Positions 35,704-64,000 of a DNA stretch of 64,000 nt are shown in pieces. The stretch is from an uncultured Bacilli bacterium (lineage in GTDB: Bacteria; Bacillota_I; Bacilli_A; ML615J-28; CAG-698), in NCBI GenBank assembly GCA_934096585.1, contig CAKOMG010000008.1, positions 34,690-98,689 of the forward strand, read 5' to 3'. The translations under genes were made by a program, and so were the position numbers. Position 1 is the stretch's first letter; every line of letters starts with the position of its first letter. Under the pieces are notes generated by a model. The model was not told the DNA's origin, made no database searches, and was given only the letters and a program-made list of their open reading frames with translations.

Positions 35704-36231
35704 GCAAATGATAGTTCTTTTGAAATCAATGGCTCTATCATAGTTGATGATGTAAGAAGTAATAATGAATACTTAGAATGCGATGAAACACAAATTGAAG
35801 TATTTGAATTTTTTAAAACCGGATTCGTAAGTAACGATGGAGAGATAATAGATACAGGAGAAATTTATATTCCTTTTACAGTAAAAGTAAATAATTGTAG
35901 AGATGAATTTAAAAATAGTTCAAAGTTGGAAATTGTATTGAACTTTACAACAACCAATATGAATTTATTTGTTAATGATCCATTAAATATGAGTATAGTA
36001 TTAAAAAATAATAATGATGAAATTATTAAAACTATTGCTTCAACCAAAGATGGATTATTATCGTTTGAAATAAGTGGTTTACAGACTATTTCAAATAATA
36101 TAGATTATAAATTATATTATCAATTTACAAAAAATGAAATTGAAAAAACATTTAAAGATGATGTCTATCCAGAATTATTAAAAGATGGATTTACATTTCA
36201 GTTAAATGCTAAAATAACGGGAAGTGATTAA
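35617..36231 (+). CDS. cassette A small exported protein (TasA/CalY-like N-terminus, function unknown)
   Basis: AGGAGG SD. N-terminus MRRLRIQYSIFIILAFLSIMSVGFASWVTANDSSFEINGSIIVDD. Paralogous to the ORFs at 44670 and 45472. C-terminus AKITGSD. Confidence 0.8.
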   Translation: MRRLRIQYSIFIILAFLSIMSVGFASWVTANDSSFEINGSIIVDDVRSNNEYLECDETQIEVFEFFKTGFVSNDGEIIDTGEIYIPFTVKVNNCRDEFKNSSKLEIVLNFTTTNMNLFVNDPLNMSIVLKNNNDEIIKTIASTKDGLLSFEISGLQTISNNIDYKLYYQFTKNEIEKTFKDDVYPELLKDGFTFQLNAKITGSD

Positions 36232-36232
36232 T

Positions 36233-41884: not shown

Positions 41885-44668
41885 TTATTTTTTAATTTCA
41901 TTCTTTTCCAGCGTTATATCAGCATATTTAGGAATATAAATATCAACTGAAACGACCCTTAATACTTTTATAGATGTAGCAGTAAAACTATGAGCTTCCT
42001 TAGAAACAACAGATGAATTGGTAGCATTAATTGATCCACTAGATATAATATTAACAATTCCTCCAAATGATGTAGCAAAAATTTTACCACTACAATTTAA
42101 AATTGCATCATCTTTTTTTGGGTAAGGTTGACTACCTAAATCGCCTTGTTCTACTGTTGTTCCATTAGGATATAAAGATTCACTTTTATAAACAGCAATT
42201 TCTTTAGCATTAAGTGTTACACCTTCATTTATAGTTAGTGATGAACCAGGTAATAATTTAAAACTTTGAGATGATGTATTTACAGTTGCAGTATTACCAT
42301 TTTCATAACTGTTCAAATTAATAATAAAGTAAAAAGGAACAGGTAAGAACACATTTTTTGATGAGACATTGATTTTTACATGAGCCGTAATACCCCATTT
42401 ACTTTTTTTAATGGCAAAATATACATCAATGCTTCCAAGTTCCCATGAACCAAAGGTATTTATTGAACATTTTTGTTTCTCTGTATTGAAAAAGCCTGTT
42501 AAACTTGCACCATTACTTAATTTAATTAAGCCATCACTAGAAATAATTTTCATATCAGCAGCATTGTGCTCACCATCAGCAAATAAAGCTGCTTTGCCTA
42601 CTAGTTTTGCACCATAATCAAATTTGAAATTAACATTTATAAAGCCATCTAAATACCATCTATTAAAAACATAACATACAGGTTTACCTTCACCTGTGGT
42701 TTTTCCACTCATACTTACGGAACTATTAACAACACTTTCAACTTCACTTTTATCTTTGCCTGCCATACCTGCAAATCTTGAACCGCCCCTATGTTCTACA
42801 ATTACATAAGGCATATTAACTATTGCTGTCGAACTATTTATTATAGATATATCATTTGAATTGTTTCCAGATATATAACCATAACAATTAATTGTTGAAT
42901 TATTGATTATTTTTGAAGAATTTAATAATTGAATTTCTGTATACTCTTGAGTTGCATTTCCATTTAGTAATTTTCCACCGCCTCCACTATTTTGGACAGC
43001 CCCTATTGTTAAAGTGCCATTATTAGTTAATGTTGAATTATTTATTATTTGAATAAATTGTTTTCTGTTGTCTGTTTTTGTATAGGCTATACTTGTTGAA
43101 TCATTTACATAACTGTGACTAGTAGTTCCACTGTATGGTAAACATAGTTCAACATTACTCTTTATCGTACAAGATTCTCTGATATAAGGGTTTCTATCAA
43201 TAATACAATAAATCACTCCTGAAGAAACAGAAGATAAAGCTAACTCTATTCTACTATAATATGTTGATCCATTATAACATACTGCTTTAACAGTTGTTGA
43301 AACCTTTATAACTAAAGAATTATAGTTTTGTGAATAAGAAGTAGGAATAAATGTTAATTCAATATCTGTAGCCTGAAGTGTTTCACTACTTCCTGATATA
43401 TTATATTGTGTTGTATCATATGACCATGTTCCGATAATTGTTCCATCATTTCCTACACCATTTACAGTTCCTTTGTTAGCACCATCAATTTCTGCTTGAT
43501 AACTACCAACAAATTCTTTTAATTTAGGTTCAGTTTCAAGTGTTAAATTAGCTTTATTTATAGTAAATGTTTTATTTTCTTTTACACAATCATAATTACT
43601 AGAACTGTTCCCTTTTAATCCAGTAATACTAAGTTTATATAAACCTGCATTTACATATCCACTTAGTATATCTGTTTGAAGCGATACATCATCGCCATCA
43701 TACACTGAGCCTTCTTTGATGGATGCAGATGGTGTATAAGCATAATCATGACCTTGATACACTGCATCACTTGGTATATTCCATTCAATATCTAACATTT
43801 TTTTATTTATTTGTAGATTAAATGAAGTTTCTGCTTTTTTAAATCCTTCCATAGTAACAGAAATTGTAACTTTATAAGAACCAGCATTAACTGCAAAATT
43901 ATCAATTAAGTCTATTCCAGCGGTTTGTGGTTGAAATTTATAATTAATATTGCTTTTGTCAATAGCTATGCTTTCGCCATTACTAGTAAAAGTAATGTCT
44001 TCAACTGGCACTATGAATTTTTCTTTATCATATATTTTTTCATAATTAGTTTTTGATAATGTAATTACTAAATCTGAAACAATAGTAAATTGTTCAGATA
44101 AAGTGCCTATATAATTACCCTGCCCAGCAAGAGTCATAGTAGCAATACCCCGATTAGTATTATTTAAATAACTGATTGTATAATCATTAGAAGTAAGAGT
44201 TAATACTTCATTATCTTCTATATCTACAGTAACACTTTCTATTTCTGGTTCCACTGCTGTACCAATATATGATAATTCATATTCTTTGAGTATTAGTAAG
44301 CCATTGCTGATGTCTCTTCTTTGAATAGTATGATTAAATTCAACAAATATATCACTAGAAGTAGTGTCAATTACTTTAACAATATATTCACCCGCATTTA
44401 TTGGCGCTCCATCAGTGTAGTCTTCAGAACTTGATTTATTCTTGTGCATTATTTTGCAATCAATTAAATTGTTCTTTTTTATGGCTTCTTTACCACTATA
44501 AATGCTTGTTTCTGTTTTTAAATAATAATTAACAACATCTTCAAAACTATATGTTGGTGTACTGTCAACGCTTGTTGTTATAAACCATGTTGCTAATCCA
44601 ATTAATGTTATTAATGGTAATAATAATATTAACATTAATGATGTAATAGATAAATTCTTTTTTTTCAT
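41885..44668 (-). CDS. cassette B giant surface protein (N-terminal anchor, MBG-type repeats, beta-helix-like core; no GW repeats, no Hint)
   Basis: ATG at 44668 (MKKKNL), 1 nt after the small-gene stop. IGLATWFITTS, INAGEYIVKV, YIGTAVEPEIESV, NAGSYKVTISV, TYYSRIELAL..NNGTLTIGAVQNSGGGG. Confidence 0.85.
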   Translation of the reverse strand: MKKKNLSITSLMLILLLPLITLIGLATWFITTSVDSTPTYSFEDVVNYYLKTETSIYSGKEAIKKNNLIDCKIMHKNKSSSEDYTDGAPINAGEYIVKVIDTTSSDIFVEFNHTIQRRDISNGLLILKEYELSYIGTAVEPEIESVTVDIEDNEVLTLTSNDYTISYLNNTNRGIATMTLAGQGNYIGTLSEQFTIVSDLVITLSKTNYEKIYDKEKFIVPVEDITFTSNGESIAIDKSNINYKFQPQTAGIDLIDNFAVNAGSYKVTISVTMEGFKKAETSFNLQINKKMLDIEWNIPSDAVYQGHDYAYTPSASIKEGSVYDGDDVSLQTDILSGYVNAGLYKLSITGLKGNSSSNYDCVKENKTFTINKANLTLETEPKLKEFVGSYQAEIDGANKGTVNGVGNDGTIIGTWSYDTTQYNISGSSETLQATDIELTFIPTSYSQNYNSLVIKVSTTVKAVCYNGSTYYSRIELALSSVSSGVIYCIIDRNPYIRESCTIKSNVELCLPYSGTTSHSYVNDSTSIAYTKTDNRKQFIQIINNSTLTNNGTLTIGAVQNSGGGGKLLNGNATQEYTEIQLLNSSKIINNSTINCYGYISGNNSNDISIINSSTAIVNMPYVIVEHRGGSRFAGMAGKDKSEVESVVNSSVSMSGKTTGEGKPVCYVFNRWYLDGFINVNFKFDYGAKLVGKAALFADGEHNAADMKIISSDGLIKLSNGASLTGFFNTEKQKCSINTFGSWELGSIDVYFAIKKSKWGITAHVKINVSSKNVFLPVPFYFIINLNSYENGNTATVNTSSQSFKLLPGSSLTINEGVTLNAKEIAVYKSESLYPNGTTVEQGDLGSQPYPKKDDAILNCSGKIFATSFGGIVNIISSGSINATNSSVVSKEAHSFTATSIKVLRVVSVDIYIPKYADITLEKNEIKK

Positions 44669-44669
44669 C

Positions 44670-45272
44670 TTATTCACCATTACCTGTTATTTTTGCACTA
44701 TATGTAAATTTACTATTCTTTAAACTATTATAAATAGTTGCAAAACTATCTAAATTATTTGTTATAGTAAATGATATAGTGATAGTTTTAGTATCTTGTG
44801 CTAAATCTTTAATTTCTATTTTTGATATACATTCATTCCCATTCACTGCTATATCATTACTTATTAATGAATCATCAGACACTTTAATTGTTACTGGAAG
44901 ATTTGTTGGATCATTAAAGAAGTTAAAACTATTATCACTATAAGTTGTTGTAAAGTATAAATTTAAAGATGTAGCATCTTTAAATGTTTCTTTACATTTT
45001 TTTATATCTATTGTAAGTTCTATACTCATAGTTCCTGTTTGACTGATACTTCCTTCATTTGTTACAAAACCTGTTTTATAGAATTTTAGTTTTGTTGGAG
45101 AAACATTTGTAATATATTCATTACTTTCAATGACATCATCTACTTGAATTGATCCTTCAATTGAAGATATTGGTGAATCAGTTGTTGTTACCCAAGAAGC
45201 AAAACCTACACTCATAATAGATAAAAATGCTAATATGATAAATATAGAGTATTGTATTCTAAGTCTTCTCAT
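44670..45272 (-). CDS. cassette B small exported protein
   Basis: The first 29 codons are identical to cassette A, and it diverges after that. C-terminus AKITGNGE. Confidence 0.8.
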   Translation of the reverse strand: MRRLRIQYSIFIILAFLSIMSVGFASWVTTTDSPISSIEGSIQVDDVIESNEYITNVSPTKLKFYKTGFVTNEGSISQTGTMSIELTIDIKKCKETFKDATSLNLYFTTTYSDNSFNFFNDPTNLPVTIKVSDDSLISNDIAVNGNECISKIEIKDLAQDTKTITISFTITNNLDSFATIYNSLKNSKFTYSAKITGNGE

Positions 45273-45471: not shown

Positions 45472-46080
45472 ATGAAAAGATTAAGAACTCAATATTTTGT
45501 TCTTACTATATTAGCAGCACTATCTATAGTTAGCGTTGGTTTTGCTTCTTGGGTAACTGCTAATGACACTACCTTTTCTTTTAACGGTTCTATTGTTGTA
45601 GATGATATACAAGATAATAATAACTATATAACTTGTAATAACTTAAAGATATTTAAATATTTCAAAACAGGTTTTGTTGATGAAAACAACAAAATTGTTA
45701 ATAATGGTTCTATTTCTTTTGATTTAGTTATAAACAATAAAAATTGTAAAGCTAAATTCACTGATTCAACAGATCTTGAAATTAGTTTACAGTTAGAATC
45801 TAATAATTTAAATTTATTCCATAGTGATATTATATCTATGGAAGTAAAAAAAGATAATGAAACTCAAAACCCATTATTCAGTTTTGATCAAACCCTTTGT
45901 GTATTACCTATTACAATAACAAACTTTAAACAAGAGAAAGATACAATAACATTAAAAATCGAATATTTATTCACTATTACTAATTTAGATGAATTTAGTA
46001 ATACAGTTTATCCAATATTACTAACTAATGATTTTAATTTTGTATTAAGTGCAAAATTAACAGGAAGTGTAGGTGAGTAG
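45472..46080 (+). CDS. cassette C small exported protein
   Basis: GGAGGG SD. MKRLRTQYFVLTILAALSIVSVGFASWVTANDTTFSFNGSIVVDD. C-terminus AKLTGSVGE. Confidence 0.8.
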   Translation: MKRLRTQYFVLTILAALSIVSVGFASWVTANDTTFSFNGSIVVDDIQDNNNYITCNNLKIFKYFKTGFVDENNKIVNNGSISFDLVINNKNCKAKFTDSTDLEISLQLESNNLNLFHSDIISMEVKKDNETQNPLFSFDQTLCVLPITITNFKQEKDTITLKIEYLFTITNLDEFSNTVYPILLTNDFNFVLSAKLTGSVGE

Positions 46081-46082
46081 TA

Positions 46083-49000
46083 TTGATTGAATTTAAGAAA
46101 ATCAAAGTATTTTTGATTATGGTTCTAATAATACCAATACTTGTACTAATTGGTTTTAGTACCTGGATAATAACTAATAAATTAATTATTAAACCAGATA
46201 TCGAAGTAAATAAGGTATTAACAGAATATCTAAACTCACAAGAAGGAACATACAATGGAAATGTCCTTCTACCAAATAGTAAAGTAATAGGTATTGTTAA
46301 TAATGGTAGAAACACTGAATTAACATATTATTATAAGCAAAATACAGATGATAATTATATTGAGTGTGTTGATAGTAATACTTCAATTGGTCCTATTAAT
46401 GCCGGTGAATATTTAATTAAGGTAAAATATATAGTTAATGATACTATTTATACAATAGATAATATTGCTTTTAAAATTAATAAAGCAATCTATGATATGA
46501 GTAATATTACCTTTAATAATACTAGTAAAGTATATAATCGTGAGAATCAAATTATAGAATGTAATGGAACTCTGCCAAAAGGTGTAACTGTGACATATAC
46601 AGGTTTTGGAAAAAATGTTGGAGAATATCCTATTACAGCTTCATTTTCAGGTGATACTAGAAACTATGAAGCTATACCTGATAAAACAGCTACATTAACT
46701 ATTACTCCAAAAGATATAAGTGAATGTAGAATATACTTTAGTAATGTTGATATAACAACGGAAAATAATGGCTTTATCTTTTTAAGTGAAAGAACACTTA
46801 GTTATATTCAATCTGGTTTAACTATAAAAGATAATGAAGATATATTAAATGAATCTAGTGAGTATACAATTGATTGGAACAATTGTGGAGTACTTCCTGG
46901 TAGTACTAATACAGCAAACATTAGTGGTACAGGTAACTATACTGGTACATCTACTATAACTTACAAAATAGAACAACCAGAATTAATTGTTGTTGCCTCA
47001 TTAGAAGGCCAAATTGATTCAGCAACATACGATGGAAATATACATTATCCAAGTGTAAAAGTTATAACTAAATATAGTTCTACACCTTTAACTGATTATA
47101 CATTATCATATGATATGGAACCTATTAATGCTGGTCAATATAACGTTAAAGTAACAGCATCAAAATCTGGATATTTAGATGGATCTAGTTCAGTTTCAAT
47201 TGTTATTTATCCAGCAAGCATTAAAGATGCTGTAGTTAATGTTAGTTCACATTCTGATAATCCTAATTTCTTTGTTTATAATAATGGTAATGAAATTAGA
47301 CCATCAGTAGAATCGGTAGTTTTAAATGGAAAAACATTAACAGTTAATACTGAATATAATGTATCTAGTTATTCAAGCAATAGAAATGCATGTACAAATG
47401 CTGCAATAGTTACTGTTAAAGGAACAGGTAACTATACAGGTGAAGCTTCAGGATCATTTTCAATTCTAAAAGCAACTCCTATTGTTACTCTTCCAACATT
47501 CATAAAAAATACTATAATTGAAGGTGAAAAGCCAACTATTAAGTCACAAGGAGTAGCTAAACATAATAATGTAAATGTTAGCGGAACTTTCACTTCTTCA
47601 AACATTAATAATATTACATTTACTGTAGGAACAAATCCTACTAGTGAATTTGGTATTAATTATTCATTTATACCGAGTGATACAAATAATTATAACACTA
47701 TTAGTGATGCTGGTAGTGTAACTGTTACAGTATATGGTGTTGGATATAATAGTTCTAATAAAAACTATTATGGTACTATAGAAAAAGGGTTAAGTGCTGC
47801 TGCTTCTGGTCAAACTTTATGGGTAGTAACAAAGATATATGAAAATAGTGGTTTTTATCCAACTATTAAATCAAATTGTGCAGTAGGTAGTGGAATTACT
47901 TTAGCACTTACATATAAAGATGGTGATTATTCGACTGGATATAAAATATATAATAATGGTGATTCTTATGTATCAAATCCTGATGGAAATGCTATTGGAG
48001 CATGCTTGAAAGTAAACAACACTGCTACTATTACAATTAATGGTACACTTCTTGTGGGTGGTTATATGGATGTTAATTCAATTACTCAAGCAAGAGCTTC
48101 TTTAATGAATAATGGGATTATTAATTTTGAAAGCGGAAGTATTGTCAAAGCATATGGAAATATTAAAGGGATTGGAAATATCTACGCAAAAAGTGGTTCT
48201 ACTATTTATGATGCCTTTAGAATTTATGACTTCCCTGGAGCAAGATATGCAGCCGGTATGTATTATAAAACTAAGAAACCTCTAGCAAGTGATACTTATA
48301 ATAATATTATGCCATTTAATTGCTATTCACTACATAATATTTCCTGTCCTATTAATATTTATTATAATTGCAATTATTTTGCAAGATATCAATTAAATGT
48401 TTCAAATACTATCTATGCAGATGATATTAAAATGTTTGGTTCTAATGGCTTTTTCAATCTTACAACTGATAATGAAGGTTCATTAGACAAAGGATACATC
48501 AGAAGAACCATTGAAGATACTACAAAAAGCACAAATATAAATTCCTCTTTTTCAACTTCTAATCAAGATCTTACTCAAAGAGAGGTATATGAAATTTATT
48601 CAAACATTATAGACAATGAAATACATGTTTCTTTAAAAATTTTAACTGTATCAGTAAATATTAATACTTCTACTGACTTGGCTATGCCAATTGGATTGAT
48701 GAAGTTAATTATTAAGAATGGATATACTGTCACTTTTTCAAAAAACTCATATAAATTCTTACCTGGTTCTTTGTTACAAATTGATGAGGGAGGCAAATTG
48801 CTTCTTAATAATGCAACGAATACTATTTTTTATGATGAATATTATGATAATTTTACTTCAACAAACCAAGGTGGAACCTCTACTAATCATGCTTCTTTTT
48901 CATATCATATACAACATAAAGCTCTATATAATGTTAGTAATGATATTTACACAGTAAAAGAAAATTATATTTCAAAAATAATTGTAAATGGTACCTTAGA

Positions 49001-50600
49001 AGTTCAAGGTGGATTTGGTGGTCTTATTGAAACAAATTCAACAAATGGTAAAATTATTTTTAATTCAAATAACGCAACAATTAATAGATTAATAAGCATC
49101 AAAGAATTAGCTAACTCTGAAGTTTTGAATATAAATCATGGAGTTGTATATCAAGACACTCAATATTCAAGACTTAAAATGTACAATGGCGAAAGCATTA
49201 ATAGTGGTTATAGTACTGTTGCTGCTGGAACATATTATTCTATTCAAGATAATTATGGTAATTATGGATGGCGTACAGATAAATTAAATATTAGTTATGA
49301 TTTAAATGGAGGATCTGGCATTACTCCTGATCCTATTCTAAACATACCTGTTTCAACGGGAGGTTATACTATTCAATCTACAGACATACCATCTGATGTT
49401 TTCACTAGAGAGTATTATGAATTTATTGGTTGGGCTCTTGATGGTCATGGAAATTCTATGATCATTCCAAATGAAACAATTATTTATGCAAGTTCTGTAT
49501 TTTATGCAATATGGAATCCTATCCCATACTCTATTACATATCATAACGTTTATTATAATAATTGTGGAAGTGGAGACAATTTAGATATTAATCCGAACCC
49601 AAGTGAATTAACTATAGAAAGTGCTTTTAATTTGGGCAATCCAACAAATGGAAATTACTTATTTGATGGTTGGTATACTGATCCATCTTGTAATAGCGAG
49701 TATCGTATTACTAGTATTCAAAACATGCATAATGATTTAATCTTATATGCTCATTGGTTCCCAGAAGGAACTAAAACAATTACTATTAAGTATAATATTA
49801 ATGTACATTCAGATGTTACTGATTTAATTCCTGATATGCCCGATGAAACAATTCCTCTTGTCAATAATCAAACGTCTTGGCAACCTATGGACCTTAAAGC
49901 AATAGCTAACAATAATAACACAATACAATATTACTTTGAAGGATGGTATTTTGAAGATGGTACTGATTATAGTCCAGAAGAATTATCAAGTAGAATTCAA
50001 GAAGATAATACTATTACTACAGTAACATTAAAAATATATGTTAAAGCTAAACTTAAAGTAACATATGTGGATGTTGAAGGCTTTGAGTACATTAGTAAAC
50101 CTGATGATTATTATATTATTCCAGGATCCACAATTACTTTAGCAAGTGGTTCTGCTCAAACTATCACAGATGATGCAAAAGGAGAAAAAAAGATTTATAC
50201 TTTTTCAACATATTCAATTACTGGAATGACAGGACAATTTGATCTTGGATCTTCTGTTCAAATCAATAGTGCTACTGATAATATAGTTACTATAAAACCT
50301 ATTTTAACAACAAAATCATTATATAAAATTAGCTATTCAGATAGTAAAAAAATTGTAAGCAGTATAACTTATGATGGTACTAATGTAACTGATGGTATGT
50401 ATGTTGAAATAGGCAAAGTGTTAATCGTAAAACTTAAAAATGTAGGAAAAACAGATACTGCTAATTCTTTAACTATAACAAACGGCAGCATCCTTGAAGC
50501 AACATTTACTCAAGCGAAAACATGGTTTGGATCTGGTAACCCTAAAGAATTCACTTATACATGGTCATCCTTTAAGGGCACTTTGATTATTTCAAGTTAA
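46083..50600 (+). CDS. cassette C giant surface protein (N-terminal anchor, MBG-type repeats, beta-helix-like core, Listeria-Bacteroides repeats)
   Basis: TTG start 2 nt after the small-gene stop, with an AGGTGAG SD. IGFSTWIITN, INAGEYLIKVKY, INAGQYNVKVTAS, NYYGTIEKGL. GW repeats YYEFIGWALDGHG, YLFDGWYTDPSCNSEY and YYFEGWYFEDGTDY. Confidence 0.85.
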   Translation: MIEFKKIKVFLIMVLIIPILVLIGFSTWIITNKLIIKPDIEVNKVLTEYLNSQEGTYNGNVLLPNSKVIGIVNNGRNTELTYYYKQNTDDNYIECVDSNTSIGPINAGEYLIKVKYIVNDTIYTIDNIAFKINKAIYDMSNITFNNTSKVYNRENQIIECNGTLPKGVTVTYTGFGKNVGEYPITASFSGDTRNYEAIPDKTATLTITPKDISECRIYFSNVDITTENNGFIFLSERTLSYIQSGLTIKDNEDILNESSEYTIDWNNCGVLPGSTNTANISGTGNYTGTSTITYKIEQPELIVVASLEGQIDSATYDGNIHYPSVKVITKYSSTPLTDYTLSYDMEPINAGQYNVKVTASKSGYLDGSSSVSIVIYPASIKDAVVNVSSHSDNPNFFVYNNGNEIRPSVESVVLNGKTLTVNTEYNVSSYSSNRNACTNAAIVTVKGTGNYTGEASGSFSILKATPIVTLPTFIKNTIIEGEKPTIKSQGVAKHNNVNVSGTFTSSNINNITFTVGTNPTSEFGINYSFIPSDTNNYNTISDAGSVTVTVYGVGYNSSNKNYYGTIEKGLSAAASGQTLWVVTKIYENSGFYPTIKSNCAVGSGITLALTYKDGDYSTGYKIYNNGDSYVSNPDGNAIGACLKVNNTATITINGTLLVGGYMDVNSITQARASLMNNGIINFESGSIVKAYGNIKGIGNIYAKSGSTIYDAFRIYDFPGARYAAGMYYKTKKPLASDTYNNIMPFNCYSLHNISCPINIYYNCNYFARYQLNVSNTIYADDIKMFGSNGFFNLTTDNEGSLDKGYIRRTIEDTTKSTNINSSFSTSNQDLTQREVYEIYSNIIDNEIHVSLKILTVSVNINTSTDLAMPIGLMKLIIKNGYTVTFSKNSYKFLPGSLLQIDEGGKLLLNNATNTIFYDEYYDNFTSTNQGGTSTNHASFSYHIQHKALYNVSNDIYTVKENYISKIIVNGTLEVQGGFGGLIETNSTNGKIIFNSNNATINRLISIKELANSEVLNINHGVVYQDTQYSRLKMYNGESINSGYSTVAAGTYYSIQDNYGNYGWRTDKLNISYDLNGGSGITPDPILNIPVSTGGYTIQSTDIPSDVFTREYYEFIGWALDGHGNSMIIPNETIIYASSVFYAIWNPIPYSITYHNVYYNNCGSGDNLDINPNPSELTIESAFNLGNPTNGNYLFDGWYTDPSCNSEYRITSIQNMHNDLILYAHWFPEGTKTITIKYNINVHSDVTDLIPDMPDETIPLVNNQTSWQPMDLKAIANNNNTIQYYFEGWYFEDGTDYSPEELSSRIQEDNTITTVTLKIYVKAKLKVTYVDVEGFEYISKPDDYYIIPGSTITLASGSAQTITDDAKGEKKIYTFSTYSITGMTGQFDLGSSVQINSATDNIVTIKPILTTKSLYKISYSDSKKIVSSITYDGTNVTDGMYVEIGKVLIVKLKNVGKTDTANSLTITNGSILEATFTQAKTWFGSGNPKEFTYTWSSFKGTLIISS

Positions 50601-54696: not shown

Positions 54697-54857
54697 TTTT
54701 TACCTCATTTCTAAATCTTTTTATTAGTAATTTAATCATCTTTATTGTATCATTATTTTTTCAAAAAAATCAACATTTACATATAAATTTTGTGGTTTTT
54801 TATAAATTTTTCAAATTTTAAATAATCATTTTATAAAAAATTGTTTTTTTATAAATT

Positions 54858-54975: not shown

Positions 54976-55017
54976 ATTCATTTTATCTCTTTTGTCTATA
55001 AATTTGATAATATGTAA

Positions 55018-55287: not shown

Positions 55288-55408
55288 GATATTTACAACT
55301 CCTTTTGTTAAGTAGCTTATTATAACATTTATAACTCTTAATTACAATAAGCATTTTAATTATAAAGTATCATAAAAAAATGACAAGTATTTAACTTGTC
55401 ATTTATTT

Positions 55409-56494
55409 TTACTCTAATTCCCAAATTGCATATAACGTTAAATTTGAAAGAATAGGTGTAATATCAGTAAATGGACCAGATGAAGGAGTTACAATCTTAT
55501 TTCTATACCAACCCATAAACTTATATCCAGGTCTAGTTGGAATAGGAATTGCTCCCCAATTATTGTCTTCAAAGTATGTATTTCTTCTAACAGGATATAC
55601 CTTATAACTTCCTGCTGGCATACTGGCTTTTACTTCACTATCTGCATCATTAAGTTCAAATGTAATATTATAATAATTATTATCATCTTCAAAACTAACA
55701 ACACTTACCCATACACCATTTTCTTTAGTGTAAATAACTTTATGAGCATGATCAAAGTAATAATCACCATTACTACCTAAATCAAATGAAGGAACAGATG
55801 CCCCACTAAACCACTTGTTTGGTTCAGCTGGTTTATTAAATACTAACCTTTCACTTGTTCCATCACTATAATTTACAGTTAAAACATATAACCCTTCTTC
55901 TTCTGAAGCCATCATTGAGCTAATACCTAATCCTTTTTCAGGTGCAGGAATTGTTATAACAACATCTTCAGATTTTGAAAAGTGGAAAGAAATAGTTGTT
56001 GATTTATCATCATTAACTACAACATCATAACCAGTCATACCATTTCCTTCATCACCCTTTTCACCCTTTGGTAAAAGAATTGGATCAGATGTAGTATTGT
56101 TACTATAACTTACAACCATATATGTATTGTTATCTTCTTCATTCACAAACGTAGAAACACCAATAATTGATATACCATGAGGTACAGTAAATGTCACTGG
56201 ATCCTTTTTATCATCTGTATATGTAATTGTAAGAATTGTTGAAGAGGAATCTTCACTCTCAGTTGTAACAATAGATTTAATACCAACACCATCAATTCCT
56301 TGTGGAATATAAAAGACATCAGGTGCTCTTGTTTCATCAGAATATGTGATTGTAATTTTTGTTCTTCCATCACTTTCCACTTCGTTAGTGATAGAAACAA
56401 TCTCAAGTGCTTCATCACCATTAAAAAATGTACAACCTGTAAGCACAAAAACAAATAATAGTAAGAACACAAATAATAGCTTTTTAAATTTCAT
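55409..56494 (-). CDS. repeat-containing lipoprotein with a C-terminal Listeria-Bacteroides repeat (operon gene 6)
   Basis: Lipobox VLTGC. Four ~40-aa units of the form ..I(T/S)Y(S/T)D.....P..(F/I)..P.G..G.GI. C-terminus RPGYKFMGWYRN. Confidence 0.75.
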   Translation of the reverse strand: MKFKKLLFVFLLLFVFVLTGCTFFNGDEALEIVSITNEVESDGRTKITITYSDETRAPDVFYIPQGIDGVGIKSIVTTESEDSSSTILTITYTDDKKDPVTFTVPHGISIIGVSTFVNEEDNNTYMVVSYSNNTTSDPILLPKGEKGDEGNGMTGYDVVVNDDKSTTISFHFSKSEDVVITIPAPEKGLGISSMMASEEEGLYVLTVNYSDGTSERLVFNKPAEPNKWFSGASVPSFDLGSNGDYYFDHAHKVIYTKENGVWVSVVSFEDDNNYYNITFELNDADSEVKASMPAGSYKVYPVRRNTYFEDNNWGAIPIPTRPGYKFMGWYRNKIVTPSSGPFTDITPILSNLTLYAIWELE

Positions 56495-56497
56495 GTT

Positions 56498-58906
56498 CTA
56501 TTTACCTCCTTTGGCATTTTCAATTAACTCCGATACTTGAGGTGTCTTCCCATATAAATAACCATTACCCTTCATACATACAAACTTGAAAGGTTCATAA
56601 CCAGTTACAACAGTAACTGATTTTAACATCATATTTTGAAGCATACCAACAGTATCTGTTCTCTTTGGTAAATTAAGATATGTATCAAGTAAATCAAGTT
56701 TTAATTCATTTCCTAAATTTGATTTACCATCTAAATTATTAATAGTGACAGTTGATAAATTCAATCCTCCACCATAATAAGCAATAGGAACATTGATATA
56801 TGATCCCGTTGATGCCGTATATAAACATCCAGCTTTAGCAGCATCAGTTGTTAAATACTTTTTAATTGGGAATATTTTGTCAATATTAATTATTCCTGAG
56901 TAATCAGGATCAACACTCGCCGCAAATGATGAAATATTTTCTTTAATAAGTCCCGTAATGTCAAGTTCTTCTGTCTTTTTATAGTCATAAAACTTAGTAC
57001 TACCAGTTATATCAACACTAACAGGATATGATACACCTGACAAGTTAGTAAATTTATACTCACCTAAACTTGTACCATCACTAGTTTGAAGCATTGCTAA
57101 AATCTTAGAAATAGATGAAGGAATATTAGAGTATAAGAATGGTCCATTAAACTGTGATTCAAGTGCAATACATGCAATACCACTCTTATAAAACAATGTA
57201 TCTTTAATTGTAATGCTTCCCTTAATAATATTTACATCATTTTTATCATTAAAGGCATTTTGCATTGAAAGAAGTGCTTCTTTCATTTTAGCTACATCTG
57301 TATATTCCGTCATCAAATACTTATTTAAAATATCATCGCCAACTCCTTCTTGTTTAAAGAACTCTTTAACAAGGCTAGTTGTAATATTTCCATCACTATC
57401 AATAAAATTTTTAACATCATTTTCTTTAATCTTTACATATTCATTGCTACCAACTTCAACTAAAAAGTTTCTTGAATTTGATAACATCGAGTTTTCTAAT
57501 GTAAAGTTTAAAGAAGAAAAACATCTAAGAACATTTTTGCCATTTTGAAGACGTGAATTAATAACTTTGTTATTTTTTCCATTTACTTCAACAACAGTTC
57601 CTGTATATTCAAGATTGGATACCATATTTCCAAAATCGCAGTTCTTTAAATTGATATCATTAACCGTAATATTATCGCCATCCACATATAACCCCACATT
57701 ATCTTGGCCATATGCCACAATTAAAGGCATATTATTAGGATCACCAAGAGCATAAAATGGAAGTGGGCCACGGAATAAATCCTTATCCCCAAGATATGGA
57801 ACCTTTACAATAGTTCCATCACTACTTGTAACATCCATTGTTTTTGATGGGAATGTTAAATTATGCATATTAATTGTATAACCGTTTCCATAAAAATCTT
57901 TTTGTACATGTAGTCCAACATTGATTTGGTCACTCAAATAATTAGTTCCATTTTTATCTTTAACTGTTTTGTTCCATTGATCAATATAATTTTTATTATA
58001 TGTTGTAGTAAAATGATATACTTCATTTTTAAAACTAAATTCTTTTGAATAATCATCATAATTACCAAATAAAGTAACGTTTGTGGAATCTTTTAAAGTT
58101 TCATAGTTATCTAAAGATTCAAAAGACTTTCTTAAAACCACAACTTCTCCAGTATTTGATCTATTTGTACAATTTAGTAAATCATCATATGTATAACAAT
58201 TTACCCCCTCAACAATCTTAAAGCTATAAGATATTGGTTTTGCAATCTCATCACTAACACAACCGACAGTAAATGATGCATCTCCTGTATCTTTTAAATA
58301 TACCTTTTGTTCATTAAGGTCTATTTCAAGATTTGAGGTAGTAAATTTCACTTCTACTTGACTTTTAAGTGATTCAGGAATAACTAAGACATCTAGATCT
58401 ATCTTCGCTCTAACCTTAGATTTTCCGTCCAAATCATATAACCCATAATAAATATCATCATCGATATTATTTTGGCTAGATGCAATATGTGGTTGCACAA
58501 GAATTACACTCTTATCGTATATAATTCCTGTCATTTTTTTAAACACATTTCCTTTTTGATTACTACAAGTAATCACTACTTCACCAGGAATTAAAGCTTT
58601 TAAATAAAAGCTATTATTGTTATTTATTAATTCAGCATGTACCTCTGTATCACTCTTATCTTTGTTTTCTATAGTCCACACTAAATTATTACCTTCTCCA
58701 ACAGGGCTATTTTTAGGATTAAGTCCAACAGCAGTTAAAGCATATGTATTATCTTGAACTTTAAATGCTTCAATATCTTTATAATTCCATCTAATTGCTA
58801 TTATGTCGTTTTCAACAAGGTTGAATGTGGAATTGATGGTTACAACTCCAAGTAAAGCAATAATAAAAGGAATTAAAAGTAGTATTATTAAATTCTTTTT
58901 TTTCAT
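56498..58906 (-). CDS. N-terminally anchored exoprotein with a Big_2-like domain and a right-handed beta-helix-like region (operon gene 5)
   Basis: TM/signal MKKKNLIILLLIPFIIALLGVV. Big_2-like LVWTIENKDKSDTEVHAEL..GEVVITCSN. PbH1-like NGKNNKVINSRLQNGKNVLRCFSSLNFTLENSMLSNSRNFLVEVG. Confidence 0.7.
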   Translation of the reverse strand: MKKKNLIILLLIPFIIALLGVVTINSTFNLVENDIIAIRWNYKDIEAFKVQDNTYALTAVGLNPKNSPVGEGNNLVWTIENKDKSDTEVHAELINNNNSFYLKALIPGEVVITCSNQKGNVFKKMTGIIYDKSVILVQPHIASSQNNIDDDIYYGLYDLDGKSKVRAKIDLDVLVIPESLKSQVEVKFTTSNLEIDLNEQKVYLKDTGDASFTVGCVSDEIAKPISYSFKIVEGVNCYTYDDLLNCTNRSNTGEVVVLRKSFESLDNYETLKDSTNVTLFGNYDDYSKEFSFKNEVYHFTTTYNKNYIDQWNKTVKDKNGTNYLSDQINVGLHVQKDFYGNGYTINMHNLTFPSKTMDVTSSDGTIVKVPYLGDKDLFRGPLPFYALGDPNNMPLIVAYGQDNVGLYVDGDNITVNDINLKNCDFGNMVSNLEYTGTVVEVNGKNNKVINSRLQNGKNVLRCFSSLNFTLENSMLSNSRNFLVEVGSNEYVKIKENDVKNFIDSDGNITTSLVKEFFKQEGVGDDILNKYLMTEYTDVAKMKEALLSMQNAFNDKNDVNIIKGSITIKDTLFYKSGIACIALESQFNGPFLYSNIPSSISKILAMLQTSDGTSLGEYKFTNLSGVSYPVSVDITGSTKFYDYKKTEELDITGLIKENISSFAASVDPDYSGIINIDKIFPIKKYLTTDAAKAGCLYTASTGSYINVPIAYYGGGLNLSTVTINNLDGKSNLGNELKLDLLDTYLNLPKRTDTVGMLQNMMLKSVTVVTGYEPFKFVCMKGNGYLYGKTPQVSELIENAKGGK

Positions 58907-60499
58907 CTAATTCACCACATCAAGCTCTAAAAACATATCATTAACGTTACGTTTTAGATATATAACTAGAGGAATTAAACATCCCATATATATTACAAAT
59001 ACAATTAAGTATGCAAGTAATATATGAAGATTTAAATATGAAGATAAAATCACTATAACAAACATTAGTAATGATAAAAAATATAACATAGCTGTAGATA
59101 AAAAACTAGATCTCGCTTTATGATGGCGAATTGATAGTTCTTCTATTAAAGCTATTAAATTATAAATAACTAACATTATTAAAGTAAATATACTTCCAAT
59201 TATAAATGTTTTAAAACTAATAACTCCACTTATTAGTAATACTAAGTTGGATATAACCATTGCAATTGTTGATAAAACAAGTGGTATTAATACTTTTACA
59301 ACTATTTGATGTATTGTACTAATGGGTATTGTTTTAACAATTTTAATTGTTTTAGTTTCCATTTGAATATAATTAGATGCGCCTTGTGATATGATTAAAC
59401 TAAATAGCATCATCACAAGTATTGTTAAGGCATCTAGGAATGTTGGGACCATGGATATATAATACGCAAAGACCCCACTTCTAAATATTGTTGTTAAGGC
59501 TTTAAGAACTAAATAGGCAAGTAATGGCTCAACAATTAACAAACTTGTAAATGTAGTCATATATGAAGAGTTCTTAACAAACATAATAAGTTCTTTTTTT
59601 ATTAATGCTTGGTTAACTGTTTTAACTTTGTAAGGATATGGTTTTACTTTTACATTTATTGTTAAAGATATATTTCTTACATAGTTAAATGCAAATATCG
59701 AAACACTTAAGCCAAGAATAAATATTCCACCACCAATTCCAAGATAAGGGAATAAGTAACGCATCTTCCCTTCAACAAATACTTCAGTTAAGAAGTTTAT
59801 TGGTACTTGGTATTTTTGTAAATTAATTATTTTGTTAATTGAATCTGTTGTAAATAAACTATTAATATTTCCTCCCGCAACAATCTTAATAAATAAATTT
59901 AATACTTTAGAGTATAACAATGTAACTCCAAGCATTAGGATTGTTGAGGCAATAAAACGCAATACATAGTGTTTATGCAAATATTTCTTTAGTAACCAAA
60001 ATGGATATACAAGTAAAAGGGCAACTCCACCAATAAAGAAGAATGTTATTACTGGATAAAATAATCCAAGATAATAAAACTTTATTGTTTTTGCACCAAT
60101 AATTCCATAAGACACAAAGATTGGGTATGTAAATATTAAACTCGTAAAATAGTGAGTTAAAAACATAAAGAATAATTTGGATAAAATTATATCTGTATTT
60201 CCAATCGGTCTTGTGGATAATTGTTCAATATCCTTTTCGTTAAAAAATAATTTATTGGCATTAAGTAAGTTAGAAACTATCAAAAGTAAAGAAATGATAA
60301 ACAAGAATAAACTCGTAAAAGCATTTTGTGCTTGATGAAAAGTTCCTATCTTCTTTAGTATCGTTGTAAACAAGAATACTTCTATTGCTACAAATGATCC
60401 TATAAATAATATCGATATTAATAATGATATTATTCTATTTGATAATTTCTTCTCACTATGGAATAACAACTTAAAATCTTTAACAAGTAAGGTTAACAT
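58907..60499 (-). CDS. polytopic membrane protein, putative ABC-exporter permease component (operon gene 4)
   Basis: At least 10 hydrophobic segments. It immediately follows the ABC ATPase with a GGAGG SD. No catalytic motif. Confidence 0.6.
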   Translation of the reverse strand: MLTLLVKDFKLLFHSEKKLSNRIISLLISILFIGSFVAIEVFLFTTILKKIGTFHQAQNAFTSLFLFIISLLLIVSNLLNANKLFFNEKDIEQLSTRPIGNTDIILSKLFFMFLTHYFTSLIFTYPIFVSYGIIGAKTIKFYYLGLFYPVITFFFIGGVALLLVYPFWLLKKYLHKHYVLRFIASTILMLGVTLLYSKVLNLFIKIVAGGNINSLFTTDSINKIINLQKYQVPINFLTEVFVEGKMRYLFPYLGIGGGIFILGLSVSIFAFNYVRNISLTINVKVKPYPYKVKTVNQALIKKELIMFVKNSSYMTTFTSLLIVEPLLAYLVLKALTTIFRSGVFAYYISMVPTFLDALTILVMMLFSLIISQGASNYIQMETKTIKIVKTIPISTIHQIVVKVLIPLVLSTIAMVISNLVLLISGVISFKTFIIGSIFTLIMLVIYNLIALIEELSIRHHKARSSFLSTAMLYFLSLLMFVIVILSSYLNLHILLAYLIVFVIYMGCLIPLVIYLKRNVNDMFLELDVVN

Positions 60500-60501
60500 C
60501 T

Positions 60502-61251
60502 TTAACCTCCATAGGTATCAATAAAAATTTTAGATAGTTGAAGTCTCTTATTTGGATTTTTATTTAAGTCAAATAATTCCTGTACAACGCCATCATTAAT
60601 AATAGCTACGCGGTCACAAATCTTTGATACTAGTTCAATATTATGGCTTGTTACAAATACGGTATTGCCATGATTTGCATACTCTCTCATCATTTTTTTA
60701 AGTTCTTCAACTGCCATTATATCTAATCCAACTGTTGGTTCATCTAGAATCCATATTTTTGGACTATATAATAAACTTCCAACTAAACATAATTTTTGTT
60801 TCATACCATGTGAATAATCAGATATTGGATTAGATAATTCATCTATCTTTAACATAAGTCTATTGCATAAATATTCAGTATTTTTCTTAAATTCACCTTC
60901 ACTAATTTGATAAATACTAGCAATAAATTCTAAGTATTCATATCCAGTCATTTCTTCATAACACGCTGGTTCACTAGCTACATAGCCAAATGAATATTTT
61001 GCTTCAATTGGATTTTTAGTAATATCAAAATCATTTATAAAAATATTTCCTTTATCAAATTTTTTTGATCCGATAATGCAATCAATTGTTGTTGACTTAC
61101 CAATACCATTGCGTCCAATAAAGCCAAATAATTCGCCACTATATACTTCTAAATTTAAGCCTTTTAATACTTCTTTTTTGCCATAAGACTTATATAAATT
61201 TTCTACTTTAATTGAAGGGATAATTATCTCTTCTTGAATTTTTTCTTCCAC
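60502..61251 (-). CDS. ABC transporter ATP-binding protein (operon gene 3)
   Basis: Walker A GRNGIGKST, signature-like YSHGMKQKL, Walker B ILDEPTVGLD, H-loop TSHN. GTG start 7 nt after an AAGGAGG that lies inside the upstream gene. Confidence 0.88.
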   Translation of the reverse strand: MEEKIQEEIIIPSIKVENLYKSYGKKEVLKGLNLEVYSGELFGFIGRNGIGKSTTIDCIIGSKKFDKGNIFINDFDITKNPIEAKYSFGYVASEPACYEEMTGYEYLEFIASIYQISEGEFKKNTEYLCNRLMLKIDELSNPISDYSHGMKQKLCLVGSLLYSPKIWILDEPTVGLDIMAVEELKKMMREYANHGNTVFVTSHNIELVSKICDRVAIINDGVVQELFDLNKNPNKRLQLSKIFIDTYGG

Positions 61252-61252
61252 C

Positions 61253-62488
61253 CTACAACCTCCTTATCTTTTTAAACCATATTGTATTTTTATCTTTGAA
61301 TAAGTAACTAGAATTACAAGAAGTACATATATATAAATTTTTCTTATTTTCAATTTCTTTACTTTTACATACTGGGCAGTATGTAGTATATACTTCTTTC
61401 TTTCCTGTGTAAGTTTTTATACTTTCACTTATGATATAGTCTATTAATTCTTGTTCTAATTTGGGATTATGAAATACAAGATGATTGTTATCTAGACTTT
61501 CAATATTGTATATTTTTAATAAATAATTAAAATCACCATCTAAATTTAAATCTTTTGTTTCTTCATTTAAATCAATATAAATATTAGTTATTGATTTTAT
61601 ATTTTTATATTCTACTGTATATTTAATATAATCATCTTTAATATTAATATTAATTTTAAAATCATTTGCATTAAAATATACATCACTTAAATCTTTAGTT
61701 TCTTCATCAAGAACAAATTTTCTTTCTTTAAAGTTTTGGATTATTAATACTAAATAGTATTTCTTTAAGTCATTTAATAATGCTTCATAGTCTGTATATT
61801 GTATAAACTTTTTATAGAACTTAAAGCAATAGTTATATAAACGATCTTTTGTAAGAATGTTTGTTGGGGTAATGACATGTCCCCTTAAACTTTCCTTTGA
61901 TACTTCTTTATAAAAGTATGTTCCTTTGATATAGCGAAGTCTTCTATTAAGTTTTTTCGCATATTGGATTAATTCTTCTATAGTTTTATCTTCTCTTAAT
62001 TCCTGTGTACCATCGATTGATGGAATTAATGATTCATACATATCTAAAAATGTGTTTACTTCAATATCAATTAAATCGATAAGCATACCAATAAAAATAT
62101 TTTCGTATATTTTTATATCATCTGTATATTGAAAATGATGCACATATTCAGGGACCATTTCATACTCTTTTTCTTTCCAAAGTGATGGTTCTTTATAACA
62201 CATTTGAAAGGCTTCATTAGAAATGTGCCCTGCAATATCGCTTCTTAAAATTATATCTTCTGTTTTATTTGATATATGTGGTTTTGCAATAATTGATGTT
62301 ATTGCATCAAGAACAAATGAAACATCATCGAAGAATTCATTATTCTTTTCACTATATAATTCTTGTAATGATTCAAGTTTTATTTTGTTTATGTTTTTAT
62401 AAAAAGATATAATGTTTTCTGACTTGTTTTGATATTCATTTATGATATTTGTTATATCTTTAAGTCTTCTTTCTTCGATGATTCTCAT
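61253..62488 (-). CDS. McrC-position partner protein with a C-terminal CxxC...CxxC zinc ribbon (operon gene 2)
   Basis: Starts 2 nt after the McrB-like gene. C-terminus YCPVCKSKEIENKKNLYICTSCNSSY. There is only a tentative D...ExK (KDDYIKYTVEYK), so the nuclease assignment is unproven. Confidence 0.5.
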   Translation of the reverse strand: MRIIEERRLKDITNIINEYQNKSENIISFYKNINKIKLESLQELYSEKNNEFFDDVSFVLDAITSIIAKPHISNKTEDIILRSDIAGHISNEAFQMCYKEPSLWKEKEYEMVPEYVHHFQYTDDIKIYENIFIGMLIDLIDIEVNTFLDMYESLIPSIDGTQELREDKTIEELIQYAKKLNRRLRYIKGTYFYKEVSKESLRGHVITPTNILTKDRLYNYCFKFYKKFIQYTDYEALLNDLKKYYLVLIIQNFKERKFVLDEETKDLSDVYFNANDFKININIKDDYIKYTVEYKNIKSITNIYIDLNEETKDLNLDGDFNYLLKIYNIESLDNNHLVFHNPKLEQELIDYIISESIKTYTGKKEVYTTYCPVCKSKEIENKKNLYICTSCNSSYLFKDKNTIWFKKIRRL

Positions 62489-62490
62489 AA

Positions 62491-63990
62491 TTACAACCTT
62501 CTTAAAATACTATTTATTGTTTGTTCACTACGTTTTAGAACATTAGCTCCATAAGTTTTATTAATTAATGTTAATAATTCTTTTAAAGCTACTTTTACAT
62601 AATCTTCAAATCTTCCTTCTATTTTACTAATTACTTTACGAGAAAGTAAGAAGTCTAAGGCATCTTCTTTTTTACCACCACATGATACAAATATTGGAAC
62701 TATTTCTTCTATTTGTGTTAAGATACGGTTACCAAATGTAATATCAAATTCATCTTTAATGAATGATGTAATTTTTGTAAACTTTTCAAAGTCTTTATCA
62801 GTCATCTTAAAGCTTTCATTTGCTTTAGCATTATTATATAATTCTTGTAATTTTGAATTACTTAAATTAACTGGACTAGCATCTCCTTCAACTAGGAAGG
62901 CATCATTTCTATCTTCAAAATCAATTGTTATAGCACGGTCATATACTTTATCAGTAATTGTGAATGTTGAATCGTCCTTGTTTGCTGTACCAACAAAATA
63001 AGAATTGTTAGGGATTTGAATTAATCCGTTATCTAATTTTGCGGGTGGGATGAATCCGTATGGAAGTTGCATAACTCTAATCTTCCATTCATCTTCTGGA
63101 TATTCAAGAACAGATAAGAAATCCGCAAAGTAATATTCAACACGTGAAATGTTCATTTCATCTAATACGAAGATATGAATCATATCAGGATTATAGTTTG
63201 CATGATATAATGTTGTTAAGAAATCTGTTTCCGAATAACTTTTTGAGAAGTCACTAAAGTATCCAATTAGATTTGTTTTGTCTCTCCATGTTGCTTGAAC
63301 TGGAATGAATAAACAATTAGCTTTAATGAATTTTGCAAAGTATCTTGGTAAACTTGATTTACCTGTACCTGACAAACCTTCAAGAATTGTGAAGTGACTT
63401 GTTCCAAATCCACTTATAAAGAATCTGATGGTATCAATATCAAAGTATAATTTTTCTGTTTGTGCTAGATAATTTCTAAATCTTTCACATAATTCATTTA
63501 GTGTTATGTTGTCTGTTTCGACCTTTTCAATTACATATCCACTATATTCTTCATCCATTGTTGATAAAGCAGGGAATACTTTTGATCTGTCATCAAGTGT
63601 TTCCGCTTGACGAGTGATTGATTGTGCTTCTCCGCCTCCACTAACAACTCCAGTTCCTATACCACTAGCATTAACTGACATATTATCTGGTGTATCAAAG
63701 TTAGCAGTTACATCTGTATTATCTTCTTCATCATCAAATTCAGGTAACTCTTTTTGATCAACTGATTTAAATGGTTTGTCAACTAATATAAAGTTAACAA
63801 CGAACATTAGTACTCCACCAATTAATGCAAATAAGAATACGTAAATGCATGTTGCAAGTAAGATACTTTGCCAAACAAATAATAATACATTTCCTAAGTT
63901 TTCTTTTGTCATTGGACTTTGGATTAATAATCCAACACCTAGTGATAATACTAAACAAGTAAGTAGTGATAATACATATGTTATTATCAT
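62491..63990 (-). CDS. membrane-anchored McrB-like (AAA_5) NTPase (operon gene 1)
   Basis: 2-3 N-terminal TM helices and an acidic/G-rich linker. Walker A LEGLSGTGKSS, Walker B/McrB-type VLDEMNISRVEYYFADFLSVLE (compare DEINRAN..FGE...LLE), and FVGTANKDDSTFTITDKVYDRAITIDF (compare GTMNTADRS..D.AL.RRF). The reading frame stays open upstream to the window edge, so the true start may lie beyond 64000. Confidence 0.7.
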   Translation of the reverse strand: MIITYVLSLLTCLVLSLGVGLLIQSPMTKENLGNVLLFVWQSILLATCIYVFLFALIGGVLMFVVNFILVDKPFKSVDQKELPEFDDEEDNTDVTANFDTPDNMSVNASGIGTGVVSGGGEAQSITRQAETLDDRSKVFPALSTMDEEYSGYVIEKVETDNITLNELCERFRNYLAQTEKLYFDIDTIRFFISGFGTSHFTILEGLSGTGKSSLPRYFAKFIKANCLFIPVQATWRDKTNLIGYFSDFSKSYSETDFLTTLYHANYNPDMIHIFVLDEMNISRVEYYFADFLSVLEYPEDEWKIRVMQLPYGFIPPAKLDNGLIQIPNNSYFVGTANKDDSTFTITDKVYDRAITIDFEDRNDAFLVEGDASPVNLSNSKLQELYNNAKANESFKMTDKDFEKFTKITSFIKDEFDITFGNRILTQIEEIVPIFVSCGGKKEDALDFLLSRKVISKIEGRFEDYVKVALKELLTLINKTYGANVLKRSEQTINSILRRL

Positions 63991-64000
63991 TTTTAAGCTA

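Follow-up and report, generated by a model that had tools for sequence, protein, structure and literature searches.

The window analysed here is the full 64,000-nt stretch of contig CAKOMG010000008.1 (positions 34,690 to 98,689) of an uncultured Bacilli bacterium, and its subject is a minus-strand operon in which genes for a membrane-anchored McrB-type GTPase and its partner run into genes for an ATP-binding cassette (ABC) transporter, a large surface protein and a lipoprotein. Genes are lettered A to I in operon order, 5' to 3'. A preliminary description of the window had placed six open reading frames (ORFs) here, and all six are present on the minus strand with exact coordinates (Table 1; the most upstream was given as 62491-63990). 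Each junction that it described could be read in the sequence: TAA-TT-ATG at 62491/62488, TAG-G-GTG at 61253/61251 with AAGGAGG at 61265-61259, GGAGGTTAAAGATG at 60502/60499, TAGATG at 58907/58906 and GGAGGTAAATAGAACATG at 56498/56494. Gene D itself stands, but the ATG at 63990 taken for its start is internal, the frame being open to base 64000, and the suspicion that the operon begins beyond the window edge proved right, three further genes being found upstream in contigs of the same species. The hairpin and T-run at 55404-55378 is the sole strong minus-strand terminator and no comparable one was found within the operon, where promoter-like matches are fewer than in shuffled sequence (49 vs 67) and no internal promoter is convincing. 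A division of the operon by an internal terminator or promoter, raised beforehand as a way in which its halves could be separate, was thus rejected for want of a convincing site. At least nine genes, A/B-C-D-E-F-G-H-I, form the conserved operon, and the six in the window are its distal two thirds.

The upstream region was read from three contigs of the same species (L001, L002 and L003), which match the window at 99.3-99.5% identity across the operon. Genes A (220 amino acids, aa), B (250 aa) and C (334 aa) are tightly linked on the same strand directly upstream of D, and the stop of C overlaps the start of the 597-aa D gene by 8 nt. The product of C resembles SipW, matching TIGR02228, the archaeal/endoplasmic reticulum (ER)-type signal peptidase I, with 64.7 bits (cut-off 51.85), and its residues Ser112, His167, Asp182 and Asp188 are at least 95% conserved among 59 homologues; we take C to be a putative, active-looking signal peptidase of the SipW/archaeal type. 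It carries an extra N-terminal transmembrane (TM) helix and a cytoplasmic tail of ~95 aa. The N-termini of A and B consist of a basic stretch and ~18 hydrophobic residues followed by G-F-A-[SA]-W-[VI], and both are predicted to be small secreted proteins of a new family, with no profile match in Pfam, NCBIfam or PDB. In the AlphaFold2 (AF2) model of B (pLDDT confidence score 86) an N-terminal helix is followed by a beta-sandwich with helices. On L001 a 150-aa two-TM protein with weak DUF6560 similarity (6867-7319) is encoded 240 nt before gene A.

The D protein, whose full-length homologue P0001 has 597 aa, shows four N-terminal TM segments and, beyond an acidic Gly-rich linker, an AAA+ GTPase domain of McrB type which, given the basic loops, is predicted to lie on the cytoplasmic side. 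The Walker A (GLSGTGKS), the Walker B (VLDEMN) and the signature N435-x-D437-[DE] are invariant, and so are G303, S305, G306, T307, G308, K309, S310, D375 and E376 over 19 diverse homologues; within the signature N435 and D437 do not vary and position 438 is D or E (GTANKDDST). For the NxD clade of McrB GTPases, defined by Bell et al. 2024 (PMC11090510), the hallmark is N-x-D in place of NxxD, usually with D or E next, and on these motifs D is a predicted McrB-type GTPase of that clade. A full-length D profile drew spurious G protein-coupled receptor matches in PDB from the TM region and the ATPase domain alone was used instead, which recovered E. coli McrB chains alone (6hz4, 6ut6 and 7vsr, E 1.5e-6), the next match having an E-value of 0.66. 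The score against Pfam AAA_5 is 15 bits, under the cut-off of 22, and no FtsB/DivIC Pfam match was obtained at E<=0.1. By analogy with McrB, D would hydrolyse GTP, form hexamers and be stimulated by its partner.

That partner, E, has no TM segments and is cytoplasmic, and its cysteines C371, C374, C388 and C391 (CPVC...CTSC) are invariant. The window protein gave no DUF2357 match at E<=0.1; this domain, the N-terminal domain of McrC, was detected in 12 of 36 close E homologues (best 1.3e-6), and among the E partners of eight distant free-standing D genes seven had it, six of them at or above the Pfam cut-off of 23.3 bits. The AF2 model of E (pLDDT 84, predicted template-modelling score 0.73; longest helix 26 residues) matched no PDB fold in Foldseek (best E 0.41), McrC structures included, and the E profile against PDB sequences returned zinc-ribbon noise alone. 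No nuclease family was found in E with Pfam, NCBIfam or PADLOC, and no PADLOC model matched it at all. E as a McrC-like nuclease was rejected on the confident AF2 model, which has no PDB fold match at E<0.4. Compared with E. coli McrBC, D shares the NTPase domain, the Walker A/B motifs and an asparagine/aspartate signature, and the E homologues share the DUF2357 region, which in McrC activates the McrB hexamer (Bell et al., PMC11090510). D differs in having four TM helices instead of a DNA-binding N-domain and an NxD rather than an NxxD signature, and E in lacking the PD-(D/E)xK nuclease, while both genes are embedded in an envelope operon. We therefore call the D/E pair McrBC-derived and, as far as its domains tell, stripped of restriction-enzyme features.

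The linkage of these genes is not peculiar to the source genome, since the same order recurs in loci of different species. An alignment of the TM-anchored ATPase D served as the query of the scan, in which each species was represented by one genome; relatives of D are encoded in at least 594 species-level genomes, of which the best 80 loci were retrieved and their ORFs searched with the nine operon proteins. The order (A/B)n-C-D-E-F-G-H-I is colinear in 41 of the 55 species-level loci having enough flank, with A/B genes ahead of C in nearly all 41 and C present in every one. Median gaps between consecutive genes are 1-4 nt across loci, G always follows F in the loci surveyed, and the colinear order is kept down to ~40% identity of D, a more distant group of five loci (L059, L060, L063, L070 and L076) having these parts rearranged. 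The loci come from uncultured gut metagenome-assembled genomes (MAGs), most of which bear the label Bacilli, Mollicutes, Acholeplasmatales, Anaeroplasmataceae, Onthovivens or Enteromonas, and some that of Clostridia or Christensenellales. The neighbourhood check proposed in the preliminary description, namely whether D co-occurs elsewhere with the ABC pair and the beta-helix gene, thus had a positive outcome, and the linkage restricted to one genome that it had named as the contrary result was not found. Conserved synteny therefore refutes one of its readings, that of a defence pair come by chance to the head of a transporter operon, here framed as the insertion of a mobile McrBC-like pair in a single genome. 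Nothing beyond the usual mobility of the McrB family speaks for such an event, and D lies mid-operon, not at the head, so that we give this explanation next to no credence.

The signal of A and B defines a wider set of candidate cargo proteins. It comprises a basic n-region, ~18 hydrophobic residues and then G-F-[AS]-[AST]-W-[VI], the motif being present ~22-27 residues from the N-terminus in 103 of 127 A/B homologues, and the G-F-[AS]-x-W form occurs also on neighbouring adhesin-like proteins of 600-1550 aa. The genes for these giants usually follow a small A-like gene, either just downstream of I or inside the operon; in L070, one of the rearranged loci, a cargo gene pair is inserted between I and F. 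Six ORFs of the window carry the signal and form three small-plus-giant pairs between 35617 and 50600 (Table 1). Cassette 1 has an A/B phmmer match of 1e-6, and the N-terminal 135 aa of the cassette 3 giant are 56% identical to those of the cassette 1 giant. Cleavage may fall after G-F-[AS], where Gly at -3 and Ala/Ser/Gly at -1 fit a signal-peptidase site. The arrangement resembles the SipW fibre systems (B. subtilis TapA-SipW-TasA, C. perfringens SipW-BsaA and archaeal bundling pili) in that a dedicated archaeal/ER-type peptidase stands beside its secreted substrates and the cargo signal is TasA-like, with a hydrophobic stretch and then Gly plus aromatic/small residues, far relatives carrying the canonical form. 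It differs in the additional helix and tail of C and in A/B, which have no sequence or fold similarity to TasA/camelysin (Peptidase_M73). To our knowledge, the known SipW fibre systems require neither an NTPase nor an ABC transporter nor a beta-helix partner.

Several further features were observed around the cassettes. Two inverted repeats of 168 nt each, at 35545-35712 and 45177-45344, are 99% complementary with 9464 nt between them; they take in the region upstream of two cargo cassettes of opposite orientation together with the first ~96 nt of these. A gene for a small serine recombinase (29333-29944; Sin/Bin3/DNA-invertase family, E 4e-28) lies ~5.6 kb away. The segment between the repeats looks invertible and could switch the expressed adhesin cassette. 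Just before cassette 1, at 33087-35048, is encoded a 653-aa multi-TM protein with M48/BlaR1-type (M56) peptidase similarity. The C-terminal ~280 aa of the 1567-aa giant (36224-40927) begin CIIEGTLITLADGTKKKIEELQFGDLL and have no Pfam match at E<=0.001; we take this stretch to recall the start of a Hint/intein-like domain, a lead alone and unconfirmed by Pfam. Between the operon and the cassettes is an island (50656-55287) of genes for a helix-turn-helix (HTH) protein, a DUF3990 protein, an M78/ImmA-like peptidase, an HD + HD_assoc (dGTPase-like) protein and a second HTH protein. The whole island is absent at this site in L001, where a cargo gene follows I, and ~1.95 kb containing the HD gene is missing from it in L002 and L003. 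The island is strain-variable and may be defence-related.

Table 1. Operon genes, terminator and putative cargo cassettes in the 64,000-nt window.
Feature	Coordinates	Strand	Description
Gene D (cut by window edge)	62491..64000	-	~residues 96-597 of the 597-aa protein
Gene E	61253..62488	-	411 aa; DUF2357-like region, beta-rich domain, C-terminal CPxC...CxxC zinc ribbon
Gene F	60502..61251	-	ABC transporter ATPase, DrrA/GldA-like ABC-2 type; GTG start
Gene G	58907..60499	-	530-aa polytopic permease, ~10-12 TM helices, short loops
Gene H	56498..58906	-	802-aa extracytoplasmic protein, N-terminal TM anchor, probable right-handed beta-helix core
Gene I	55409..56494	-	361-aa lipoprotein, lipobox LTGC, short beta repeats, C-terminal Listeria-Bacteroides (Flg_new) repeat
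Intrinsic terminator	55378..55404	-	11-bp stem, 5-nt loop, T-run; 4 nt past gene I stop; closes operon
Putative cargo cassette 1	35617..40927	+	204-aa A-like protein (SVGFASWV) overlapping 1567-aa adhesin-like protein (VIGFSTWLI; Flg_new)
Putative cargo cassette 2	41885..45272	-	200-aa A-like protein (SVGFASWV) overlapping 931-aa protein (LIGLATWFI)
Putative cargo cassette 3	45472..50600	+	202-aa A-like protein (SVGFASWV), then 1505-aa protein (LIGFSTWII; Flg_new x2)

The distal genes F to I encode the envelope part of the operon. F matches Pfam ABC_tran with 82.5 bits and, in NCBIfam, the DrrA subfamily (4e-50) and GldA (2e-44), both under the equivalog cut-offs. G has ten hydrophobic segments, a score of 22.1 bits against ABC2_membrane_4 (cut-off 27) and a weak precomputed 12TM_1 match, and is probably a fused ABC-2-type permease. 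H has one N-terminal TM segment, and among its 37 homologues identity is 31-59% and 34 positions, P13 of the anchor being one, do not vary; such strong conservation suggests an enzyme or an assembly factor, with catalysis or precise docking. The Big_2 label given to H in the preliminary description was rejected, the protein having no Pfam match at E<=0.1. The beta-helix label fared somewhat better: the window protein itself is likewise without a Pfam match, but Beta_helix was matched in 3 of the 37 homologues (best E 5.6e-5). No PDB sequence matched H, and homology of H to the giant cargo/adhesin proteins was rejected as no similarity was seen. The I protein, which reads MKFKKLLFVFLLLFVFVLTGC, scores 33.4 bits against Flg_new (cut-off 27) and 30 bits against TIGR02543 (cut-off 20.95). 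An ABC-2 ATPase, a permease, a beta-helix ectoprotein and a lipoprotein in one operon are also what makes up NosDFY-NosL, in which ATP hydrolysis reportedly drives conformational work outside the membrane. By analogy, the likeness suggests that ATP would drive conformational work on a beta-helix protein outside the cytoplasm and not the transport of a solute. Cargo and organisms differ between the two systems, and the comparison is one of analogy alone.

In regards to the wider D family, 88 of the 150 best representatives are TM-anchored and the forms of 700-800 aa are soluble. Soluble relatives of the ATPase core occur on plasmids and in two phage-like contigs; those on plasmids share the ATPase core alone with D, and on the one plasmid examined, from Lactococcus lactis, such a relative is followed by a nuclease-domain protein and lies between insertion sequence (IS) elements. 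The TM-anchored form was in no plasmid or phage record searched. D as a mobile-element gene was rejected, the plasmid and phage-like relatives being soluble and none of them TM-anchored. Two distant loci, L080 (from a Tenericutes MAG) and L083, have SipW flanked by proteins whose signals are of the canonical SipW type (GSTFAWFT and GATLAWF), with D directly after SipW, the L080 cargo-like protein scoring 18.7 bits against TIGR04088 (cut-off 19); the SipW-D association appears to be old. In three others (L066, L068 and L071) a four-TM D and its DUF2357 partner lie directly downstream of PilM-like, PilC (E 6.7e-58) and PilB (E 4.5e-110) genes on the same strand, and these neighbours point to a second filament link for D/E. 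The locus also resembles type IV pilus systems (prepilin peptidase, pilins, PilB ATPase and PilC platform) in its logic, with a dedicated peptidase, several small paralogous subunits sharing an N-terminal signal, large modular proteins that look like adhesins and, in the cytoplasm, an NTPase on a polytopic membrane base. It differs in that no component is homologous, the G-F motif here follows the hydrophobic helix instead of preceding it, and there is no Glu5. As side observations, ten loci of Clostridia MAGs have a free-standing four-TM D with a nuclease-less DUF2357 protein, no signal peptidase, cargo or pilus genes within 10 kb and no conserved third neighbour, and in two loci (L079 and L082) a single-TM D is duplicated around the DUF2357 gene (D-E-D), followed by proteins of >1000 aa, one with an antigen I/II C2 domain.

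The preliminary description had held that no described system joins these parts. This has to be qualified, since Bell et al. (eLife 2024, PMC11090510) name, in one paragraph that defers the analysis to a later paper, the CoCoPALM systems, membrane-anchored NxD-type McrB GTPases linked to signal-peptidase-family proteins with predicted pilus assembly. The locus shares with them the NxD GTPase, the N-terminal membrane anchor, the neighbouring signal-peptidase-family gene and the predicted role in pilus/surface assembly; as for their DUF2357 McrC homologue, the domain was seen among homologues of E, the window E itself being without a match. There are differences: the GTPases described there have an FtsB-like single TM and a coiled coil, whereas D combines four TM helices with an acidic Gly-rich linker, and coiled coils are present on each of the two partners there, whereas the model of E has no long one. 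The claim stands for the remaining parts, the ABC-2 pair, beta-helix protein and lipoprotein being unmentioned in PMC11090510, as are the G-F-[AS]-x-W signal and the small-plus-giant pairs. The locus would be a variant of the CoCoPALM systems with four added conserved genes and a defined cargo signal. In the literature searched, no CoCoPALM follow-up or analysis was found, and nothing relevant on SipW with McrB, on PDC-M26 or on SipW in Mollicutes.

Taken together, we propose that the operon serves a dedicated family of surface proteins, which it would process, assemble or display, possibly in filament form, and we put the probability of this at about 0.62. An assembly or secretion apparatus was one of three readings among which the preliminary description made no choice, and it is favoured because a SipW-type peptidase and its cognate secreted proteins A and B lie upstream, because the nine-gene order is conserved and the McrC-like partner has no detectable nuclease, and because distant D/E pairs adjoin SipW-type cargo or type IV pilus genes. 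Most likely, a surface-protein/filament machine has co-opted a McrBC-derived motor, and DNA cutting is not its likely role.

The mechanism could be pictured as follows. Cargo would be exported by Sec, kept in the membrane by its h-region and cleaved by C after G-F-[AS]. D would form a hexamer with E plugged in, as in McrBC, and at the cytoplasmic face this complex would act as a motor or gate by which GTP hydrolysis serves to release, order or polymerise cargo at the peptidase. An F2-G transporter would pass ATP-driven movement to H and I on the outer face, and these would attach or assemble cargo outside, analogous to NosFY-D-L, with the small A-like proteins as subunits or adaptors for the giant adhesins. 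Complex formation, polymerisation, mechanotransmission and the cleavage site are what we infer from the gene content.

A number of observations weigh against surface-protein assembly. A and B have no detectable similarity to TasA, to pilins or to any solved fold: the B model gave no significant Foldseek match (best E 0.036, to an unrelated protein), and A/B as TasA-like or pilin-like proteins were unsupported by PDB profile, Pfam and Foldseek, so that to call them filament subunits is purely something that we infer. The curated SipW-dependent signal TIGR04088 is matched neither by A and B nor by the small A-like proteins of the window and the 1505-aa giant. Homology of H to NosD was rejected for lack of detectable sequence similarity, and cargo cleavage by C, the D-E complex, the C-D contact and the coupling of F/G to H and I are all drawn by analogy. 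The D/E module does not strictly depend on SipW, cargo or pilus genes, because in 11 loci it stands alone, with none of these within 10 kb.

These 11 loci, which hold D/E without the other operon genes, could also be taken to mean that the operon is a set of co-transcribed and functionally separate modules. SipW and A/B would then make up a simple matrix system of the TasA type, F/G would work as an ordinary exporter or immunity pump of ABC-2 kind to which the surface proteins H and I are accessories, and D/E would be a regulatory GTPase pair with no relation to the rest. The presence of SipW-D without F-I in L080 and L083 and the resemblance of F to generic DrrA/GldA-type ATPases are in line with this. 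It is harder to reconcile with junctions of 0-4 nt and an unchanged order persisting to ~40% identity of D, with rearranged loci that keep all the parts and have cargo genes inserted among them, and with F-G-H-I occurring without C-D in 0 of 80 loci; we consider such a patchwork unlikely.

The last point against surface-protein assembly is that the ATPase core of D matches PADLOC PDC-M26A (E 5e-41), a model belonging to the candidate defence system PDC-M26. The match is to the A component alone and is partial (profile positions 300-438 of 724), and the 700-800-aa relatives have no TM helices. It lends some probability to another reading of the preliminary description, an envelope-associated defence or sensing system, which otherwise found little support. 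As an anti-phage or abortive-infection system, this would have the anchored McrBC derivative sense an event at the envelope, for instance phage adsorption or DNA entry, and in response set off an effector or, by way of the ABC transporter and surface proteins, remodel surface receptors. The McrB family is overwhelmingly defensive, its soluble plasmid relatives occur with a nuclease partner between IS elements, and the strain-variable island with its HD/dGTPase-like, M78 peptidase and HTH genes adjoins the operon. However, no nuclease or recognisable effector was found with Pfam, PADLOC or Foldseek and E is unmatched by any PADLOC model. Unlike patchy defence islands, the nine-gene order is stable over dozens of species with its parts diverging in step. 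A signal peptidase and a cargo family are bound up with the operon, and the plasmid and phage collections contain no TM-anchored form. A defence role is therefore unlikely, slightly more so in our estimation than the separate modules.

Returning to surface-protein assembly, a more specific version can be offered tentatively, at somewhat less than even odds: that this is a pathway for sorting proteins and assembling filaments in gut Bacilli that are poor in sortases and have a thin wall or none (RF39, Acholeplasmatales and relatives). There, a nuclease-stripped membrane GTPase ring, a SipW-type peptidase and an ABC-2/beta-helix/lipoprotein module would together release, and polymerise or anchor, all G-F-[AS]-x-W proteins, including megadalton-scale adhesins. 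If true, this would be a new class of surface-appendage machinery, with a restriction motor exapted for envelope biogenesis.

We know of no NxD-clade McrB GTPase or CoCoPALM system that has been characterised experimentally. The locus is a concrete and widely conserved case with an identifiable cargo signal, peptidase and partners, by which the role of a nuclease-less membrane McrBC becomes testable, and it cautions against automatic "defence system" calls from McrB-like ATPase matches. Sortases are absent in some of these gut Bacilli lineages (PMC10868615), where a sortase-independent display route would matter biologically. The carriers are abundant, uncultured gut Bacilli, and the system could be their main route of adhesin display, with a bearing on host colonisation.

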